A stretch of 31,446 bases of DNA from IMG/VR virus record IMGVR_UViG_2872698443_000005; one strand, given 5' to 3'. Shown here piece by piece: positions 3,164-10,961 of this stretch; position 1 is the stretch's first letter; each line of letters starts with the position of its first letter. The stretch is from a virus (Duplodnaviria; Heunggongvirae; Uroviricota; Caudoviricetes). The translations under genes were made by a program, and so were the position numbers. The notes under the pieces are model-generated. The model made no database searches, had not been told where the DNA came from, and saw only the letters and a program-made list of their open reading frames with translations.

Positions 3164-3385
3164 TCAGGCTACAGCTTTAAGATTTGTCTGGAATATTTTG
3201 TTGCAATGAGGGCAGATCAAAAGGGCACCTTTTTGTACTCTTGAAAAACTGTGTTCTGACTCTTGGGTGCAGTTTGGGCAGGAACATTTAACGAGATAAT
3301 TACGGCGTGATTTTGAGTCTTTACGTTCTGACATAGGCTTTTCCTGTATAAATGGCCGTATACAGTACACTAAATATGAAAACAT
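3164..3385 (-). CDS. Hypothetical small Zn-ribbon protein (two CxxC pairs)
   Basis: 73-aa ORF; CPNC...CPHC motifs. Stop is about 60 bp from the 3083-3105 hairpin on the - strand. True start may be the internal Met (MSERK...). Confidence 0.3.
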   Translation of the reverse strand: MFSYLVYCIRPFIQEKPMSERKDSKSRRNYLVKCSCPNCTQESEHSFSRVQKGALLICPHCNKIFQTNLKAVA

Positions 3386-3553: not shown

Positions 3554-3769
3554 ATGAAATCAATGGATAAGTTAACAACAGGTGTTGCCTATGGCACATC
3601 GGCGGGTAATGCTGGTTTCTGGGCATTGCAGTTACTCGATAAAGTAACTCCGTCACAGTGGGCTGCAATCGGTGTGCTGGGTAGCCTGGTTTTTGGCCTG
3701 CTGACGTATCTGACAAATCTTTATTTCAAGATTAAAGAAGACAGGCGTAAGGCTGCGAGAGGAGAGTAA
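3554..3769 (+). CDS. Class II holin / pinholin (phage 21 S-like), dual-start motif MKSMDK
   Basis: [28 protein letters not shown]...[35 protein letters not shown]: two transmembrane segments, charged C-terminus, Met1-Lys-x-Met4 dual start. First gene of the lysis cassette. Confidence 0.85.

Positions 3770-4081: not shown

Positions 4082-4085
<4 letters not shown>
3774..4085 (+). CDS. ydfR: Uncharacterised 103-aa protein between holin and endolysin (YdfR-like)
   Basis: ORF with a good RBS (gagaggagag) 5 nt after the holin stop; its stop overlaps the endolysin start (ATGA). No recognisable catalytic motif. Confidence 0.55.
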
Positions 4086-5109
<1,024 letters not shown>

Positions 5110-5339
5110 GGTAATATTAAATCGGAACATTTACATCGCGGAATGTAAAATTTAAATAAAAAGGACTCTTCCATGAGTCAAAATTCCTGAAATCTTAAGG
5201 GTAAGATAAAAGGTCTTAATCAGAATGACACGTTTTATTAATAAATAAAGCTATTCTTTCATTGCTGTGTTTTTCTTTACAAAAGTAATCCTTGCTATGG
5301 GTGGTTAATCATGCGTTAATGGTGTTCTGGTTTGTTACA

Positions 5340-5370
5340 AATTTATCTGAAGCAGTCATTGTTATAATTT
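5340..5370 (+). promoter_or_regulatory. Candidate sigma70 promoter with extended -10 (TGtTATAAT) upstream of the cold-shock gene
   Basis: tgttataat at 5360-5368 inside an AT-rich region; it would give a 5' UTR of about 100 nt, as is typical for csp genes. The -35 element is weak. Confidence 0.3.
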
Positions 5371-5472
5371 TATTATTTGTACCTCTTGAGATTTCCTTGT
5401 TGGTTTTTCTCTCTGATATTTTTTTTTCGGACCATTCTGCCCAAGGGCTAATTTCTTCAAAAGGTAATAATT

Positions 5473-5685
5473 ATGTCTAACAAAATGACTGGTTTAGTGA
5501 AATGGTTTAACCCTGAAAAAGGTTTTGGTTTCATCACGCCGAAAGATGGCAGCAAAGATGTGTTTGTCCATTTCTCAGCAATTCAGAGCAACGATTTCAA
5601 AACATTAACTGAGAATCAGGAAGTTGAATTTGGTATTGAGAACGGACCTAAAGGCCCTGCCGCTGTTCATGTAGTGGCGCTTTGA
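5473..5685 (+). CDS. cspI: Cold-shock protein, CspA family (CspI-like)
   Basis: 70-aa [26 protein letters not shown]...FVHFSAI with the RNP1/RNP2 motifs of cold-shock domain proteins. Confidence 0.9.
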
Positions 5686-5717
5686 GGTAGACAATATTAC
5701 AAACCATATTCACTTTA

Positions 5718-5884
5718 GATGCCCGTGTTGTCATGGTTCCCAGTATAGAACATCATCTTTTGATGTTTCTGACATGAATCCTTTCGGGGCAAAATGTATC
5801 TTTTGTAAATCAATGATGATTACATTTGATAATATTTCACAATACTTAAATGCCAGCCGTCTGTCGTTGGATTTAAAAAAGTGA
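5718..5884 (+). pseudogene. Small Zn-ribbon ORF (YnfN-like) with a probable frame disruption near its start
   Basis: An open frame encoding ..RCPCCHGSQYRTSSFDVSDMNPFGAKCIFCKSMMITFDNISQYLNASRLSLDLKK* has no canonical start; the nearest upstream ATG (5718) is in another frame and stops after 9 codons. One base more or less in the C-run at 5722-5724 would fuse them. Confidence 0.3.
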
Positions 5885-5891
5885 AAATGAA

Positions 5892-5914
5892 GGCTCCTTC
5901 GGGAGCTTTTTTGC
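5892..5914 (+). terminator. Rho-independent terminator
   Basis: gctcc-ttcg-ggagc hairpin followed by a run of six T. Confidence 0.6.
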
Positions 5915-5956
5915 TTGGTGTCTATTCGATGGATACTCACATACTACGGTAACATC

Positions 5957-6187
5957 ATGAAAAAAATCATAGTTTTTTTTAACTCTGAACCAGCAGTGGT
6001 AGTGCCAGCGATGACTGGAGTTAACACCATCATGCGTGAATATCCAAATGGCGAAAAAACACACCTTACTGTAATGGCCGCAGGGTTTCCATCTCTGACC
6101 GGAGATCATAAAGTCATTTATGTAGCCGCGGATCGACATGTTACTTCAGAAGAAATTCTGGAAGCAGCAATAAGGCTCTTGAGTTGA
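5957..6187 (+). CDS. Hypothetical 76-aa protein
   Basis: ORF MKKIIVFFNSEPAVVVPAMTGVNTIMREYPNGEKTHLTVMAAGF...; ATG start chosen inside the longer tool ORF. Weak RBS and no recognisable motif. Confidence 0.4.
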   Translation: MKKIIVFFNSEPAVVVPAMTGVNTIMREYPNGEKTHLTVMAAGFPSLTGDHKVIYVAADRHVTSEEILEAAIRLLS

Positions 6188-6358
6188 TTTGATGCTATTG
6201 CATTGATAATTCAGGAAAATTCTCTTTGTCTGTTTGTGTAAAATTTAGACTATCGTATGTTGATTATTGCGATGTTTCATCTTATCTTTTACACGTTTGC
6301 ACCATATAATCGACTTACTGTGTAACTGGAAAGTCATAACAGACTAAAAGAGGAAATG

Positions 6359-6532
6359 ATGAATATTGAAGACTTAAAAACAAAAGCAGAAGCAGATATT
6401 TCTGAATATATAACAAAAAAAATTATTGAACTTAAGAAAAAGACCGGGAAAGAAGTTACCAGTATTCAGTTTACCGCACGGGAAAAAATGACGGGTCTTG
6501 AAAGCTATGATGTCAAGATTAATTTAATCTGA
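6359..6532 (+). CDS. gnsB: Gns-family small protein (GnsB-like), 57 aa
   Basis: MNIEDLKTKAEADISEYITKKIIELKKKTGKEVTSIQFTAREKMTGLESYDVKINLI, preceded by the RBS aagagga. Absent from the ORF track because it is under 60 aa. Confidence 0.75.
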   Translation: MNIEDLKTKAEADISEYITKKIIELKKKTGKEVTSIQFTAREKMTGLESYDVKINLI

Positions 6533-6561
6533 TGTATTCAATAATAAAATTTATCCATAAA

Positions 6562-6582
6562 CCTCGTTTTTACGGGGTTTTG
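6562..6582 (+). terminator. Possible weak rho-independent terminator after the Gns-like gene
   Basis: cctcg/cgggg stem (one G-U pair) followed by tttt. Confidence 0.3.
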
Positions 6583-6683
6583 TTATATTTGAATGGTTCC
6601 GAATATCTAAATCACAATTGTTGATGGTTTTTATTAAATCAATGCAGTCCGGCTCAGGAGTGAGAGAAGCCGGACGTTATGGT

Positions 6684-7094
6684 TTAGCGTGGTAAGATCT
6701 GTGTAGTTTTCTGGATGCTTTCAGTAAATAGTAATGAGTTATCAAAGGCATAGTAATATCTTGGGTGTTCCTGGATATTTGTAACCCATCGGAAAACTCC
6801 TGCTTTAGCAAGATTTTCCCTGTATTGTTGAAATGTGATTTCTTTTGATTTCAACTTATTATAGGAGGTCTCTATAAGATGTTTGTTTCTGGAGAATTTA
6901 ACATTTACAACCTTTTTGAGTCCTTTTACTAACACTATGTTGTCGTTTTCTAACACAATGTGAATATTATCTGTGGCTAAATAGTAAATATAAAGTGAGA
7001 CATTGTGACGTTTTAGCTCAGAATAAAATAATTCACAGTTTAAATCTTTACGCACTTGATCGAATATTTCTTTAAAAATGGCAGCCTGAGCCAT
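6684..7094 (-). CDS. ydfO: YdfO-like protein (DUF1398 family), 136 aa
   Basis: Minus-strand ORF; start taken at the second ATG ([11 protein letters not shown]...), which has a GGAAGG RBS 6-7 nt upstream. Confidence 0.65.
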
Positions 7095-7394
7095 TGGTAA
7101 ACCTTCCATGTGATACGATGGCGCGTAGTTTGCATTATCGTGTTTATTGTTTCAATCTGGTCTGACCTCTTTGTGTTTTGTTGATGATTTATGTCAAATA
7201 TTAAGCCTGTTTTTAATGAATAGTGTTGATTGCGTAACAAAGTTGAGCCTTGCTGGCATCCAGGAGGGATATGCAACCGACAGATGTATGTAAGGTCGAT
7301 GTACTCAAACTTTCATACTTTTCCTCTTTTATGCAGAAAGATTTGAAGTAATATTTTAACCGCTAGATGACGAGCAAACGCATGGAGCGACAAA

Positions 7395-7601
7395 ATGAAT
7401 AAAGAACAATCTGCTGATGAACTCTCGTTGGATCTGATTCGTGTAAAAAATATGCTTAATAGCACCATTTCTATGAGTTACCCGGATGTTGTAATTGCAT
7501 GTATAGAACATCAGGTGTCTCTGGAAGCATTCAGGGCAATTGAGGCAGCGTTGGTGAAGCACGATAAGAATTCGAAGGATTATTCCCTGGTGGTTGACTG
7601 A
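7395..7601 (+). CDS. Hypothetical 68-aa protein
   Basis: [71 protein letters not shown], predicted mostly helical; a ggag RBS lies upstream. Confidence 0.45.
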
Positions 7602-7949
7602 GCACCATAACTGCTAATCATTCAAACTATTTCACCTGTGACAGAGTCAATGTCGCATTCTGTCACTGTCAGGCTAATACAAAGCTGCAATTCAACTACT
7701 GCAATGCCCTCGTAATTAGGTGAATTTACAATATCGTCCTGTTCGGATGCCGGCTGCATTGCTGAAGATGAGGCATTTATGGTTCGCATATTTTCCCCTC
7801 ATGCTCGTCAGTCCTGTGCGTAGGAAGAAACAGGACACTCACACTAATTTGTGTGGGCATGCTGTGATGTCCTTCTGAATTATTCCTATGCCATTATGTA
7901 AGCGCTGTATCAGATGCTCGTCACGGCTGTCAGGCTGTCGGGTCCTCCC

Positions 7950-8000
7950 GGTGGGGGCCCCTGCCACGGGGCGGGAGCGTCGCGGAAAAAGGCTAGTTTT
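7950..8000. other. cos site candidate (cosN-like nicking region) upstream of the small terminase gene
   Basis: cgggtcctcccggtggg...cacggggcgggagcgtcgcgg resembles, from memory, the lambda cohesive-end region (..cgggtcctttccggtg..acg GGGCGGCGACCT cgcggg) and sits about 180 bp upstream of the Nu1-like gene. Confidence 0.45.
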
Positions 8001-8154
8001 TGAAATTTTATTCGTCATCATCGCTACTGTAATTGATTGATATTACAGTTGTTTTATTTTTATGGTGTCGATTCTGATTGTTTTTTGTTCATCACTAACA
8101 CCGTTTGCCTAAAGTTGTTCGCAAGATGCATGTTTAAAACATTCTGGAGCGGGT

Positions 8155-8649
8155 ATGGATCGAGAGTTAAAAAATCTGACGCTGAATATCAGTCAACTGG
8201 CGGCATTGTCAGGTGTACATCGCCAGACTGCTGCGGCAAGGCTGCAAAATCTACCCGTTGCAGGGGGGCATGAAAGCAACCTCAAGCTTTATCGGGTGGT
8301 TGATATTGTGTCGGCATTTCTGGCATTACCACCGCCGGTTGCAGAAGGCGAAATGGACGCGCATGAGCGCAAAGCCTGGTATCAGTCTGAACGTGAGCGT
8401 CTTAAGTTCGAACAGGAAACGGCACAACTCATTCCGGCCAGTGATGTCAGACGGGAGTTTGCCATCTGGGCAAAAGCGGTCGTGCAGGTGCTGGAGACAT
8501 TACCGGATATTCTTGAACGTGACTGCGGTCTGCAGCCTGCCGCTGTGAGCCGTGTTCAGTCCATTATTGATGATCTGCGCGATCAGATAGCCCTGCGGGT
8601 GACTGAAGCAGGTGCGGATGATGAGGAGGAATTACAGCAGGAGGAGTAA
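8155..8649 (+). CDS. Terminase small subunit (Nu1-like)
   Basis: 164-aa ORF with an N-terminal helix-turn-helix (LTLNISQLAALSGVHRQTAAARL) and an acidic C-terminus; stop overlaps the large-subunit start (TAATG); downstream of cos. Confidence 0.8.
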   Translation: MDRELKNLTLNISQLAALSGVHRQTAAARLQNLPVAGGHESNLKLYRVVDIVSAFLALPPPVAEGEMDAHERKAWYQSERERLKFEQETAQLIPASDVRREFAIWAKAVVQVLETLPDILERDCGLQPAAVSRVQSIIDDLRDQIALRVTEAGADDEEELQQEE

Positions 8650-10712
8650 TGCTGAATCAGGAAACCGCAAAGGCAGCACGAACCGATTCAGGTTATATCC
8701 TTCGCGCACCGAGACGAATGCGGGTTGCTGATGCCGTTGCTCAGTATATGCGGGTGCCCATGGGGGCAGGGAACTCAGTCCCGTGGGATCCGCTGGTGGC
8801 ACCGTATGTTATTGAGCCTATGAACTGCCTGGCCTCGCGTGAATACGACGCAGTGATATTTGTTGGCCCGGCACGAACCGGCAAGACTATCGGCCTGATT
8901 GACGGCTGGGTGATTTACAACGTGATTTGCGATCCTGCTGATATGCTGATCATTCAGATGACGGAGGAAAAAGCCCGCGAACACTCCAAAAAACGACTCG
9001 CCAGAACGTTTCGCGTCAGCCCGGAAGTGGTCAGTCGCCTGAGTCCGAACAAAAATGACAACAACGTTTATGACAGAACATTCCTTGCTGGCAACTACCT
9101 GAAAATCGGCTGGCCGTCAGTCAATATCATGTCTTCATCAGATTATAAATGCGTGGCGCTGACGGATTATGACCGTTTTCCGGAAGATATTGATGGTGAG
9201 GGGGATGCCTTCTCTCTTGCCTCAAAACGTACCACCACATTTATGTCCAGTGGTATGACGCTGGTGGAGAGTTCCCCCGGCAGGGATGTGAAGGATGTGA
9301 AATGGCGACGGACTTCACCGCATGAGGCTCCACCAACCACGGGGATCCTGTCGCTCTATAACCGTGGCGATCGCCGTCGCTGGTACTGGCCCTGTCCACA
9401 CTGTGGTGAGTATTTTCAGCCCTGCGGCGATGTGGTTGCTGGTTTCCGTGATATTGCCGATCCTGTGCTGGCAAGTGAGGCGGCTTATATTCAGTGTCCT
9501 TCCTGTTCAGGACGGATTTTGCCTGAACAAAAACGCGAGCTGAACGGACGTGGGGTCTGGTTACGGGATGGTGAATCCATCAATGCAGATGGCAGTCGTT
9601 ATGGTGATCCCCGGCGTTCACGTATTGCGTCATTCTGGATGGAGGGGCCGGCAGCTGCTTATCAGACACTCTCGCAACTCGTTTACAAACTGCTTACTGC
9701 AGAACAGGAATACGAGACAACCGGAAGTGAAGAGACACTCAAGACGGTTATCAATACCGACTGGGGATTACCTTATCTTCCCCGCGCCAGCATGGAGCAA
9801 CGAAAAAGTGAATTGCTTGAGCAGCGGGCAGAGCCAGTTCCTTCCCGCAGTGTGCCGGATGGCGTTAATTTCCTTGTGGCGATAGTGGATGTGCAGGCGG
9901 GACGTCATCGCCGTTTTGTGGTTCAGGTAACGGGCTATGGCAGCCGTGGCGAACGCTGGATTATTGATCGTTACAACATCACGCAGTCATTGCGCGGTGA
10001 CAGCGACGGGGAGAGCCAGCGAATTGATCCGGCCAGCTATCCGGAAGACTGGGATGTCCTGCTGACGGATGTTTTTCATAAAAGCTGGCCGCTGGCCTCC
10101 GATCCTTCTCAACAAATGCGACTGATGGCAATGGCGGTGGACTCCGGCGGTGAAGACGGGGTCACTGATAATGCCTATAAATTCTGGCGTCGTTGCCGTC
10201 GTGATGGCCTTGGTAAACGTATTTACCTGTTTAAGGGCGACAGCATCCGGCGCGCAAAACTGATCACCCGTACATTCCCTGATAACACCGGACGAACGGG
10301 CCGACGGGCGCAGGCCGCAGGTGATGTACCGCTCTGGCTTCTTCAGACGGATGCCCTGAAAGACCGGGTGAATAACGCGTTATGGCGTGACTCGCCAGGT
10401 CCCGGCTATGTGCATTTCCCTGACTGGCTGGGGAGCTGGTTTTACGACGAACTGACGTATGAAGAGCGGAGCAGTGACGGGAAATGGAGTAAGCCGGGTC
10501 GCGGTGCCAACGAAGCTTTTGACCTGATGGTGTATGCCGAGGCTCTGGTCATTCTGCATGGATACGAAAAGATCCGCTGGCCGGATGCACCGGAGTGGGC
10601 GAGTCGGGAAACCTGGCTGGAGTGTGTCCCGGACAGTACCGAACCGTCACCCACACCGGAACCGGTATCCACGCCTGTTAAAAAAACAAAAACGGAAGAA
10701 AACAGTAACTGA
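8649..10712 (+). CDS. Terminase large subunit (lambda gpA family)
   Basis: 687-aa ORF with a Walker A motif (GPARTGKT) and a CPHCGE Zn-ribbon-like motif recalled from lambda gpA. Confidence 0.9.
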   Translation: MLNQETAKAARTDSGYILRAPRRMRVADAVAQYMRVPMGAGNSVPWDPLVAPYVIEPMNCLASREYDAVIFVGPARTGKTIGLIDGWVIYNVICDPADMLIIQMTEEKAREHSKKRLARTFRVSPEVVSRLSPNKNDNNVYDRTFLAGNYLKIGWPSVNIMSSSDYKCVALTDYDRFPEDIDGEGDAFSLASKRTTTFMSSGMTLVESSPGRDVKDVKWRRTSPHEAPPTTGILSLYNRGDRRRWYWPCPHCGEYFQPCGDVVAGFRDIADPVLASEAAYIQCPSCSGRILPEQKRELNGRGVWLRDGESINADGSRYGDPRRSRIASFWMEGPAAAYQTLSQLVYKLLTAEQEYETTGSEETLKTVINTDWGLPYLPRASMEQRKSELLEQRAEPVPSRSVPDGVNFLVAIVDVQAGRHRRFVVQVTGYGSRGERWIIDRYNITQSLRGDSDGESQRIDPASYPEDWDVLLTDVFHKSWPLASDPSQQMRLMAMAVDSGGEDGVTDNAYKFWRRCRRDGLGKRIYLFKGDSIRRAKLITRTFPDNTGRTGRRAQAAGDVPLWLLQTDALKDRVNNALWRDSPGPGYVHFPDWLGSWFYDELTYEERSSDGKWSKPGRGANEAFDLMVYAEALVILHGYEKIRWPDAPEWASRETWLECVPDSTEPSPTPEPVSTPVKKTKTEENSN

Positions 10713-10748
10713 CGATGTTAACCCCTGGCTGACTTCCGGAGGATGGTT

Positions 10749-10961
10749 ATGAATCAGAATGATATTGAAGCCATGATTCAGCGTTATACGGAAGCTGAAA
10801 TGGCGGTGCTGGACGGAAAATCCGTCACTTTTAATGGTCAGCAGATGACCATGGAAAACTTATCTGAGATCCGGCAGGGGCGGCAGGAGTGGGAGCGCCG
10901 CCTTGCGGCTCTGATTACACGACGACGGGGGCATCCCGGGTACCGGCTGGCGAGGTTCTGA
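10749..10961 (+). CDS. Head-tail joining protein (gpW-like)
   Basis: 70-aa ORF located between terminase and portal as in lambda; RBS ggagga 5 nt upstream; stop overlaps the portal ATG (ATGA). Confidence 0.65.
   Translation: MNQNDIEAMIQRYTEAEMAVLDGKSVTFNGQQMTMENLSEIRQGRQEWERRLAALITRRRGHPGYRLARF

Follow-up and report, generated by a model that had tools for sequence, protein, structure and literature searches.

The accessory genes at the right end of a Qin-type lambdoid prophage were analyzed in a stretch of viral DNA of 31,446 nucleotides (Caudoviricetes; IMG/VR record IMGVR_UViG_2872698443_000005; hereafter the window), in which they occupy positions 5473-7601, between the lysis genes and the cohesive-end site (cos). 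This region very probably comprises two independent and previously described modules. The first (module A, 5326-6590) carries cspI, ynfQ, ynfR, ynfN, and gnsB, and the second (module B, 6684-7601) carries a minus-strand DUF1398 gene and a 68-amino-acid open reading frame (ORF68) orthologous to lambdap79 of phage lambda and to YbcW of prophage DLP12. Sequence similarity indicates that the cluster is not a single insertion, since positions 5100-7172 resemble Qin and positions 6665-7747 resemble lambda. Its content is already known, as every open reading frame (ORF) falls in a named gene or family of Escherichia coli K-12 Qin, DLP12, or lambda. The original prediction, made from the letters alone, had proposed a cluster of morons serving as lysogenic-conversion or stress-related cargo. 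This interpretation is supported by transcription in a lysogen of prophage Tritos, by the cold induction of YnfR, and by the link between GnsB and the membrane.

Positions 5100-8200 were 100% identical to several complete E. coli chromosomes, and approximately 3,400 of 5,426 complete genomes matched at least part of this segment. PGAP annotation of an identical chromosome gave the gene order truncated rspB, IS1, IS3, ynfU, essD, ydfR, an rrrQ pseudogene, and rzpQ in the left part; cspI, ynfQ, ynfR, ynfN, gnsB, the minus-strand DUF1398 gene, and a 68-amino-acid hypothetical gene in the middle; and a DUF1441 small terminase, a frameshifted terL, portal, head, and tail genes in the right part, ending at pinQ. 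All ORFs initially listed thus exist and received the same calls, but the 21-amino-acid ynfR had been overlooked. The proposed position between Rz and the terminase genes or cos was also borne out: the accessory region is flanked by rzpQ (4612-5109) on the left and by terminase genes from 8155 on the right, and its right boundary is a cosN-like cohesive end, GGGCGGGAGCGT (7969-7980, plus strand), which aligns with the left end of lambda, GGGCGGCGACCT. The GC content of the cluster is 30-43% versus 50-56% in the terminase genes, a deviation in composition typical of morons.

A close relative among the described prophages is Tritos (OV696610), from the adherent-invasive E. coli strain LF82, which shares all seven genes and has 99.1% DNA identity over positions 5100-7968; the linear Tritos record stops at the equivalent of window position 7968, directly before the cos-like site. 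The genes rzpQ-cspI-ynfQ-ynfR-ynfN-gnsB-ydfO of K-12 Qin have the same names and order and are 95.9% identical at the DNA level over positions 5100-7172. Beyond 7172, K-12 Qin continues with ynfO (DUF3950) and a truncated nohA; in the window, this place is taken by the lambdap79 homologue, followed by cos and by packaging, head, and tail genes that look intact. Conversely, positions 6665-7747 are 89.8% identical to lambda 47023-48090, and the right end of lambda (Rz, bor, lambdap78, lambdap79, cos) carries the same divergent gene pair. This pair is also found near cos in DLP12 (rzpD, borD, ybcV, ybcW, ylcI, nohD), although no ylcI-like DUF3950 ORF was found in the window. In both lambda and DLP12, bor (minus strand) lies between Rz and the divergent pair, and cos and Nu1 come after the pair, whereas in the window the cspI-to-gnsB block takes the place of bor. 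Together with the location of the cassette elsewhere in phage PHB10 (see below), this reproduces the presence/absence pattern of morons.

Module A opens with a cspA-type 5' untranslated leader of cspI, an RNA thermosensor (5326-5472, plus strand). The match to Rfam family RF01766 extends over 5326-5712 and covers the full model (1-428) with 112.9 bits (gathering threshold 78; E=2e-29), and a temperature response is predicted from it. A permissive-threshold Rfam scan of 4900-8300 found this leader as the sole RNA. Just 5' of it lies a weak, putative -35/-10 pair (TTGCTA at 5292-5297 and GTTAAT at 5315-5320). The first gene, cspI (5473-5685, plus strand), encodes a CspA-family cold-shock RNA and single-stranded DNA chaperone of 70 amino acids, called as such by PGAP, with a Pfam CSD match of 108.4 bits over residues 5-69 and with the RNP1 (KGFGFI) and RNP2 (VFVHF) motifs of CspA-type proteins. 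The ratio of nonsynonymous to synonymous substitution rates (dN/dS) of cspI was 0.04-0.08.

The second gene, ynfQ (5696-5884, plus strand), encodes a YmcF-like zinc-ribbon protein of 62 amino acids (CxCC...CxxC) that matches the whole PF23641 profile (1-62 of 62, 109.9 bits). It starts at ATT, 8 nucleotides after a Shine-Dalgarno sequence (GAGGT) that overlaps the cspI stop codon (window 5684-5698), and because of this start a mechanical ORF list shows only the last 36 codons. The Shine-Dalgarno sequence and the ATT start are kept at four independent loci: the window, a related prophage (L008, ~3728-3741), a locus adjoining icd (L013, ~3744-3758), and K-12 ymcF (L006, 1674-1687). The YmcF-like cysteines are likewise kept at all four; YnfQ belongs to the family, and zinc binding is predicted. 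The YmcF-like gene had a dN/dS of 0.12; the copy in L013 was overlooked by the gene caller. The 'cold shock' label of YmcF and YnfQ derives from PGAP product names and from a table entry (PMC11228462).

Between ynfQ and ynfN, and within ynfR, lies a terminator-like hairpin, AAGGCUCC-UUCG-GGAGCUUUUUU followed by six U (5891-5912, plus strand), with a fold z-score of -2.8. The terminator scan lists a stem at 5893-5906 on the minus strand only, and our reading of the 5891-5912 stem as a possible plus-strand terminator comes from its sequence. The small ORF (sORF) ynfR (5887-5952, plus strand) was called by PGAP; it encodes 21 amino acids, is identical to K-12 YnfR, and stops 4 nucleotides ahead of the ynfN start. 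L008 retains the hairpin that follows the YmcF-like gene but not the overlapping YnfR peptide; instead, an unrelated sORF of 20 codons is present, and its stop overlaps the ynfN start codon. What is conserved would therefore be a terminator or attenuator and an upstream sORF that couples translation into ynfN, rather than the YnfR sequence itself.

The 76-amino-acid ORF of the original prediction is ynfN in its intact form (5957-6187, plus strand), which matches phrog_3425 over its full length (1-76 of 76, E=7e-54). No Pfam or NCBIfam family was found for YnfN, and its homologue set consists of 60 clusters, which makes it a narrow family. The 76-residue frame, including the N-terminal MKKVIVFFNSEPA, is complete and free of indels in homologues with as little as 52% identity, and dN/dS values of 0.10-0.20 are those of purifying selection. 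This conservation argues that YnfN is a real gene of a named family. An AlphaFold model built on a homologue alignment was of good quality (predicted local distance difference test, pLDDT, 88; predicted template modelling score 0.75) and consists of five strands followed by a C-terminal helix; a search with this model gave no structural match. In K-12 MG1655, a run of seven T replaces the eight T at window positions 5973-5980 (L004, K-12 1638109-1638184 region), and because this breaks the 76-amino-acid frame the K-12 gene is annotated as encoding 51 amino acids. Tritos and other phages carry eight T, and yet the Tritos record copies the 51-amino-acid annotation despite its intact frame. Thus, the K-12 YnfN is a frameshift-truncated allele of a conserved protein. 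YnfN may have escaped study owing to this reference allele, and the 76-amino-acid form, which other strains and phages commonly carry, would be the better basis for functional work.

The last gene of module A is gnsB (6359-6532, plus strand), which encodes a protein of 57 amino acids of the GnsA/GnsB family (PF08178, 119.6 bits), with matches to the GnsA structures 4XO1/4XO2 (E=1e-20; for 4XO2, E=2.7e-20) and a dN/dS of 0.06-0.13 for gns genes. It is followed by an intrinsic terminator with a 9-bp stem and a T-rich tail (6559-6590, plus strand), identified by the terminator scan. Several genes of the cluster had been credited with promoter and terminator signals of their own. Generic scans did not bear this out, as 8 promoter sites were found versus 11.3 expected, and the 3 terminators found versus 2.2 expected were not above chance. 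The claim therefore rests on three specific elements, which hold: the cspA thermoregulator, the 5891-5912 hairpin, and the terminator after gnsB.

Published data connect these genes to cold and other stresses. SPA-tagged YnfR is strongly induced by cold shock (PMC6001520). Exposure to AZT co-induces cspI, ynfQ, and ynfN 5.8- to 6.5-fold, with a strong SspA dependence common to all of them (PMC11228462), and long-term stationary phase is accompanied by a joint increase of cspI and ynfN, with a cspI mutant losing in competition (PMC7406224). The evidence for expression in lysogens comes from the literature: in a Tritos lysogen, transcript levels of cspI and ynfN exceeded the prophage background 93-fold and 27-fold, respectively, and the authors list both as morons; these data cover cspI and ynfN, not gnsB or ORF68 (PMC9928086). 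Plasmids carrying gnsA and gnsB rescue cold-sensitive mutants low in unsaturated fatty acids (fadR relA backgrounds), gnsA expression restores 16:1 and 18:1 fatty acids, and unsaturated fatty acids are raised by GnsB overexpression (bioRxiv 10.1101/2024.03.27.586906). The genes of module A and these published data form a coherent cold and membrane-fluidity cargo.

Module A would accordingly act as a mobile cold-adaptation cassette, expressed from the prophage independently of the lytic programme. Its mRNA would begin with the thermosensor leader, so that the message is stabilised and translated when cold, and would yield first the RNA chaperone CspI and then YnfQ, from the AUU directly past the cspI stop codon. 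Both ynfR and ynfN would be reached by read-through of the 5891-5912 hairpin, and the translation of ynfN may be coupled to that of the upstream sORF. GnsB could then shift membrane lipids toward unsaturated fatty acids, as it does when overexpressed, and the strong terminator behind its gene would end the module.

The order csp, YmcF-like, YnfN, and GnsB recurs in prophages of Enterobacteriaceae with a 76%-identical YnfN and two types of terminase. A csp gene followed by YnfN is also found in a 60%-identical locus adjoining icd (L013), with an uncalled YmcF-like frame between them, and in phage PHB10 (MK524177, 43.5-45.0 kb) a 59%-identical YnfN lies 3' of a divergent csp pair, adjoining an integrase and umuDC. 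Because the PHB10 copy is not situated between lysis genes and cos, the csp-ynfN unit appears to relocate as a cassette. The cspA thermoregulator was present 5' of the csp gene in both loci tested (L008 and L013), and dN/dS values were 0.04-0.20 across csp, YmcF-like, ynfN, and gns genes. The linkage of csp, the AUU-initiated YmcF-like gene, and YnfN, with gnsB as the usual next gene, is conserved across phage backgrounds, which points to a common function in adapting to cold or stress. A paralogous arrangement exists on the K-12 chromosome, outside any phage context, in the cspG-ymcF-ymcE-gnsA locus, which consists of a csp gene, a YmcF-like gene (ATT start), an ORF of 76 amino acids, and a Gns gene, with approximately 74% DNA identity in the csp/ymcF and gns segments. 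Its middle gene, however, encodes YmcE, a hydrophobic protein that is reported to be an antitoxin and is unrelated to YnfN.

In module B, the DUF1398 gene of the YdfO/YbcV/lambdap78 family (6684-7094, or to 7109 with an upstream ATG; minus strand) encodes a protein that matches the whole PF07166 profile (1-119 of 119, 147.9 bits) and the structure of YdfO (PDB 2HH8, E=1.2e-69), which places it in the DUF1398 family. It is nearer to lambda p78 (124/138 residues identical, 90%) than to K-12 YdfO (106/136, 78%). The 300-bp divergent intergenic region upstream contains a single exact match in the window to a PdhR-box-like sequence, ATCTGGTCTGACCTCTT (7155-7171, plus strand), identical to the box published between ybcV and ybcW of DLP12, whose mRNAs are approximately 10-fold lower in a pdhR mutant (PMC7660256). 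Moreover, ydfO is stress-inducible and its overexpression is reported to raise resistance to oxidative stress (PMC4077768), and overexpression of T4 MotB strongly up-regulates ybcV and ybcW, altering H-NS-dependent repression (PMC7827196). Module B is best read as a pair of genes diverging around a host PdhR site. Both of its proteins are dispensable for plaque formation, and that of lambdap79 is recognised by the Vulcan NADase defence.

The other gene of the pair, ORF68 (7395-7601, plus strand), matches phrog_657 over its full length (1-68 of 68, E=5e-47), and 62 of its 68 residues (91%) are identical to lambdap79, the amino-acid sequence of which equals that of DLP12 YbcW. In length, in its divergence from the DUF1398 gene, and in its position upstream of cos, ORF68 corresponds to the lambdap79/YbcW family. 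It has no Pfam or NCBIfam family, and its AlphaFold model (pLDDT 80, core ~90) is a three-helix bundle that resembles generic bundles only. The family was detected in 40 of 50,697 phage records, essentially lambda and its close relatives. An exhaustive HMMER search retrieved true homologues down to ~40-50% identity with the core YPDVV-ACI...VS-E-F-AIEA-L, and in this search most hits that seemed divergent were lambdap79 copies full of frameshifts and errors, and no larger protein convincingly contained ORF68 as a domain. Relative to a 54%-identical homologue, dN/dS was ~0.09, indicating purifying selection. This homologue (L016, 273-464) is located at one edge of an element that also encodes AlpA and a Rep-like protein and has two DUF7828/Zn-ribbon genes; no DUF1398, terminase, or cos is nearby, and its context gives no clue to function. 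In ENA, thousands of contigs (~3.5 kb each) carry versions of lambdap79 with numerous substitutions and frameshifts. They probably derive from lambda control DNA, as reads or assemblies, and inflate the apparent size and diversity of the family in metagenome protein sets.

Because it is located on the late-transcript strand, ORF68 may be a late phage gene rather than a moron expressed in the lysogen. A tentative alternative is therefore that it is a lytic host-takeover or counter-defence gene made just before cos, and that defences such as Vulcan evolved to detect this activity; we consider it possible, although distinctly less probable than the two-module reading. The distance from ORF68 to cosN downstream is 367 bp, the gene has been retained in lambda, in DLP12, and in the present prophage, and many triggers of abortive infection are anti-defence or takeover proteins of phages. 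ORF68 is absent from the genes of the Tritos lysogen whose transcription exceeds the background 5-fold or more (PMC9928086). According to a 2026 preprint, every lambda-vir escaper selected by the Vulcan NIR-NADase defence has a deletion of lambdap79, probably acquired through recombination with K-12 Qin, and co-expression of lambdap79 with Vulcan is toxic, which identifies it as an activator (bioRxiv 10.64898/2026.09.04.749371); the protein used was that of lambda itself, from which ORF68 differs at 6 of 68 residues. The statement that the two small ORFs lack an assignable function stands biochemically for YnfN and ORF68, but the lambda orthologue of ORF68 has a reported role in activating a defence system. 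CRISPR interference on lambdap79 lowers the plating of lambda.

On the other hand, the escapers that lack lambdap79 are viable and lambda without the gene still forms plaques, so that lambdap79 is dispensable; lambdap78 scores as non-essential, and the predicted dispensability of the pair is in agreement with both results. The plating drop is most simply attributed to polarity on the late transcript, i.e., on the downstream head and tail genes, as would follow from established lambda biology. In addition, ybcW is transcribed in uninfected K-12 under the influence of PdhR (PMC7660256), the three-helix-bundle model offers no functional clue, and the family is confined to the few phage records mentioned above. 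If ORF68 did have a counter-defence or takeover role, it would make the host incompatible with Vulcan-type NADase immunity. That this prophage keeps a lambdap79 homologue and K-12 Qin does not could matter for the compatibility of prophages and defences.

A broader version of these ideas is rather doubtful. It holds that either csp, the YmcF-like gene, and ynfN are a self-contained mobile cassette in which YnfN is a dedicated partner or modulator of the phage-borne Csp, or the lambdap79 homologue is a counter-defence or takeover factor.

Less probable still is a toxin-antitoxin or abortive-infection module, in which GnsB would be the toxin and YnfN the antitoxin by analogy with GnsA and YmcE. 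The family label in Pfam and PGAP reads 'GnsA/GnsB toxin / addiction module toxin', ymcE-gnsA is catalogued as a type II toxin-antitoxin pair of E. coli (PMC8484670), and YnfN (76 amino acids) occupies the same slot as YmcE (76 amino acids) in the chromosomal locus. Nevertheless, YnfN has no similarity to YmcE, which ruled it out as an analogue of this antitoxin, and a tblastn search with YmcE gave no significant match in the window; the adjacent antitoxin expected of such a pair was thus not found. For these reasons, the 'addiction module toxin' label of GnsB is unsupported by a partner here. Moreover, ynfN and gnsB do not overlap and are separated by 171 bp, gnsB plasmids rescue growth rather than kill, and in L013 and PHB10 a csp gene accompanies YnfN but no GnsB was called. 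PADLOC, applied to the proteins of the cluster, returned nothing for GnsB, YnfN, YnfQ, or ORF68; its only matches were a generic CSD_V for CspI (E=3e-15) and a weak one for DUF1398 (E=2e-4). An NCBIfam match to the retron Se72 effector (50 bits) was under the cut-off of 82. These scans agree with the earlier statement that no defence-system signature is recognisable. The region therefore hides no new defence or conversion system and is a well-annotated Qin/lambda accessory region. To this clean negative, we add a few modest observations: ynfN is frameshifted in K-12, the cassette is conserved along with its leader and hairpin, both small proteins have structural models, and a close homologue of a defence trigger is retained.

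It is highly improbable that the 76- and 68-amino-acid ORFs are non-functional remnants or arose by chance in an AT-rich spacer: both lack a Pfam or NCBIfam family, the frameshift of ynfN does no obvious harm to K-12, and both families are narrow (60 YnfN clusters; 165 ORF68 representatives, mostly error-ridden lambda copies), but both are conserved over their full length without indels (YnfN to 52% identity, ORF68 to 39-54%) with low dN/dS (~0.1-0.2 and ~0.09), both have confident AlphaFold models, ynfN is transcribed in lysogens (PMC9928086), lambdap79 is active as a defence trigger, and ybcW mRNA is regulated. The remote-homology and structure prediction suggested at the outset as a check gave a YnfN fold without structural match and a generic bundle for ORF68, and placed both, which are real genes under purifying selection, in named families; assignment to known non-functional remnants, which had been proposed as a refutation, did not result.

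Several points weigh against the reading of the region as two known modules with cold-adaptation cargo. The expression and phenotype evidence comes from strains other than the present one, and the effects of GnsB are overexpression phenotypes. In the generic promoter scan, no consensus promoter was found for cspI, gnsB, or ORF68. A single transcript from cspI to ynfN is suggested by co-regulation, which is correlative. As the YnfR peptide is not kept in L008, it may be a by-product of the hairpin region. Lastly, this prophage has lost Q and the late promoter, so that any expression of ORF68 from a late operon is gone here.

The prophage is defective because IS1 and IS3 replaced the early region, rrrQ has acquired a stop codon, and terL a frameshift. 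The two insertion sequences, IS1 (946-1643) and IS3 (1771-2933), occupy the place of the early region. The lysozyme gene rrrQ (4082-4615) has an in-frame stop at 4502-4504, and in the terL region (8649-10752) the ORF stops at 10712 and the rest is in another frame, with the break near the 3' end. In contrast to this copy, with its early region lost and its lysozyme and terL genes interrupted, Tritos was deposited as a complete 46.4-kb genome with cspB upstream of the lysis genes.

Other small ORFs at 7040-8040 and 5292-5480 had no Pfam family and were taken as chance ORFs. The gene ynfU (3164-3334, minus strand), located 5' of the lysis genes, encodes a small Zn-binding protein (PF23499). It is also found around the csp cassette in related prophages, sometimes twice (L008, 2431-2604 and 5051-5215), and is thus a further small Zn-ribbon gene that travels with the region. 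Compared with the best-matching chromosome, NZ_CP080080.1, the window shows isolated differences at 3196, 3442, 15566, and 17101, and from ~21816, in the tail-gene region, the two sequences lose register, pointing to an indel or a mosaic tail segment.

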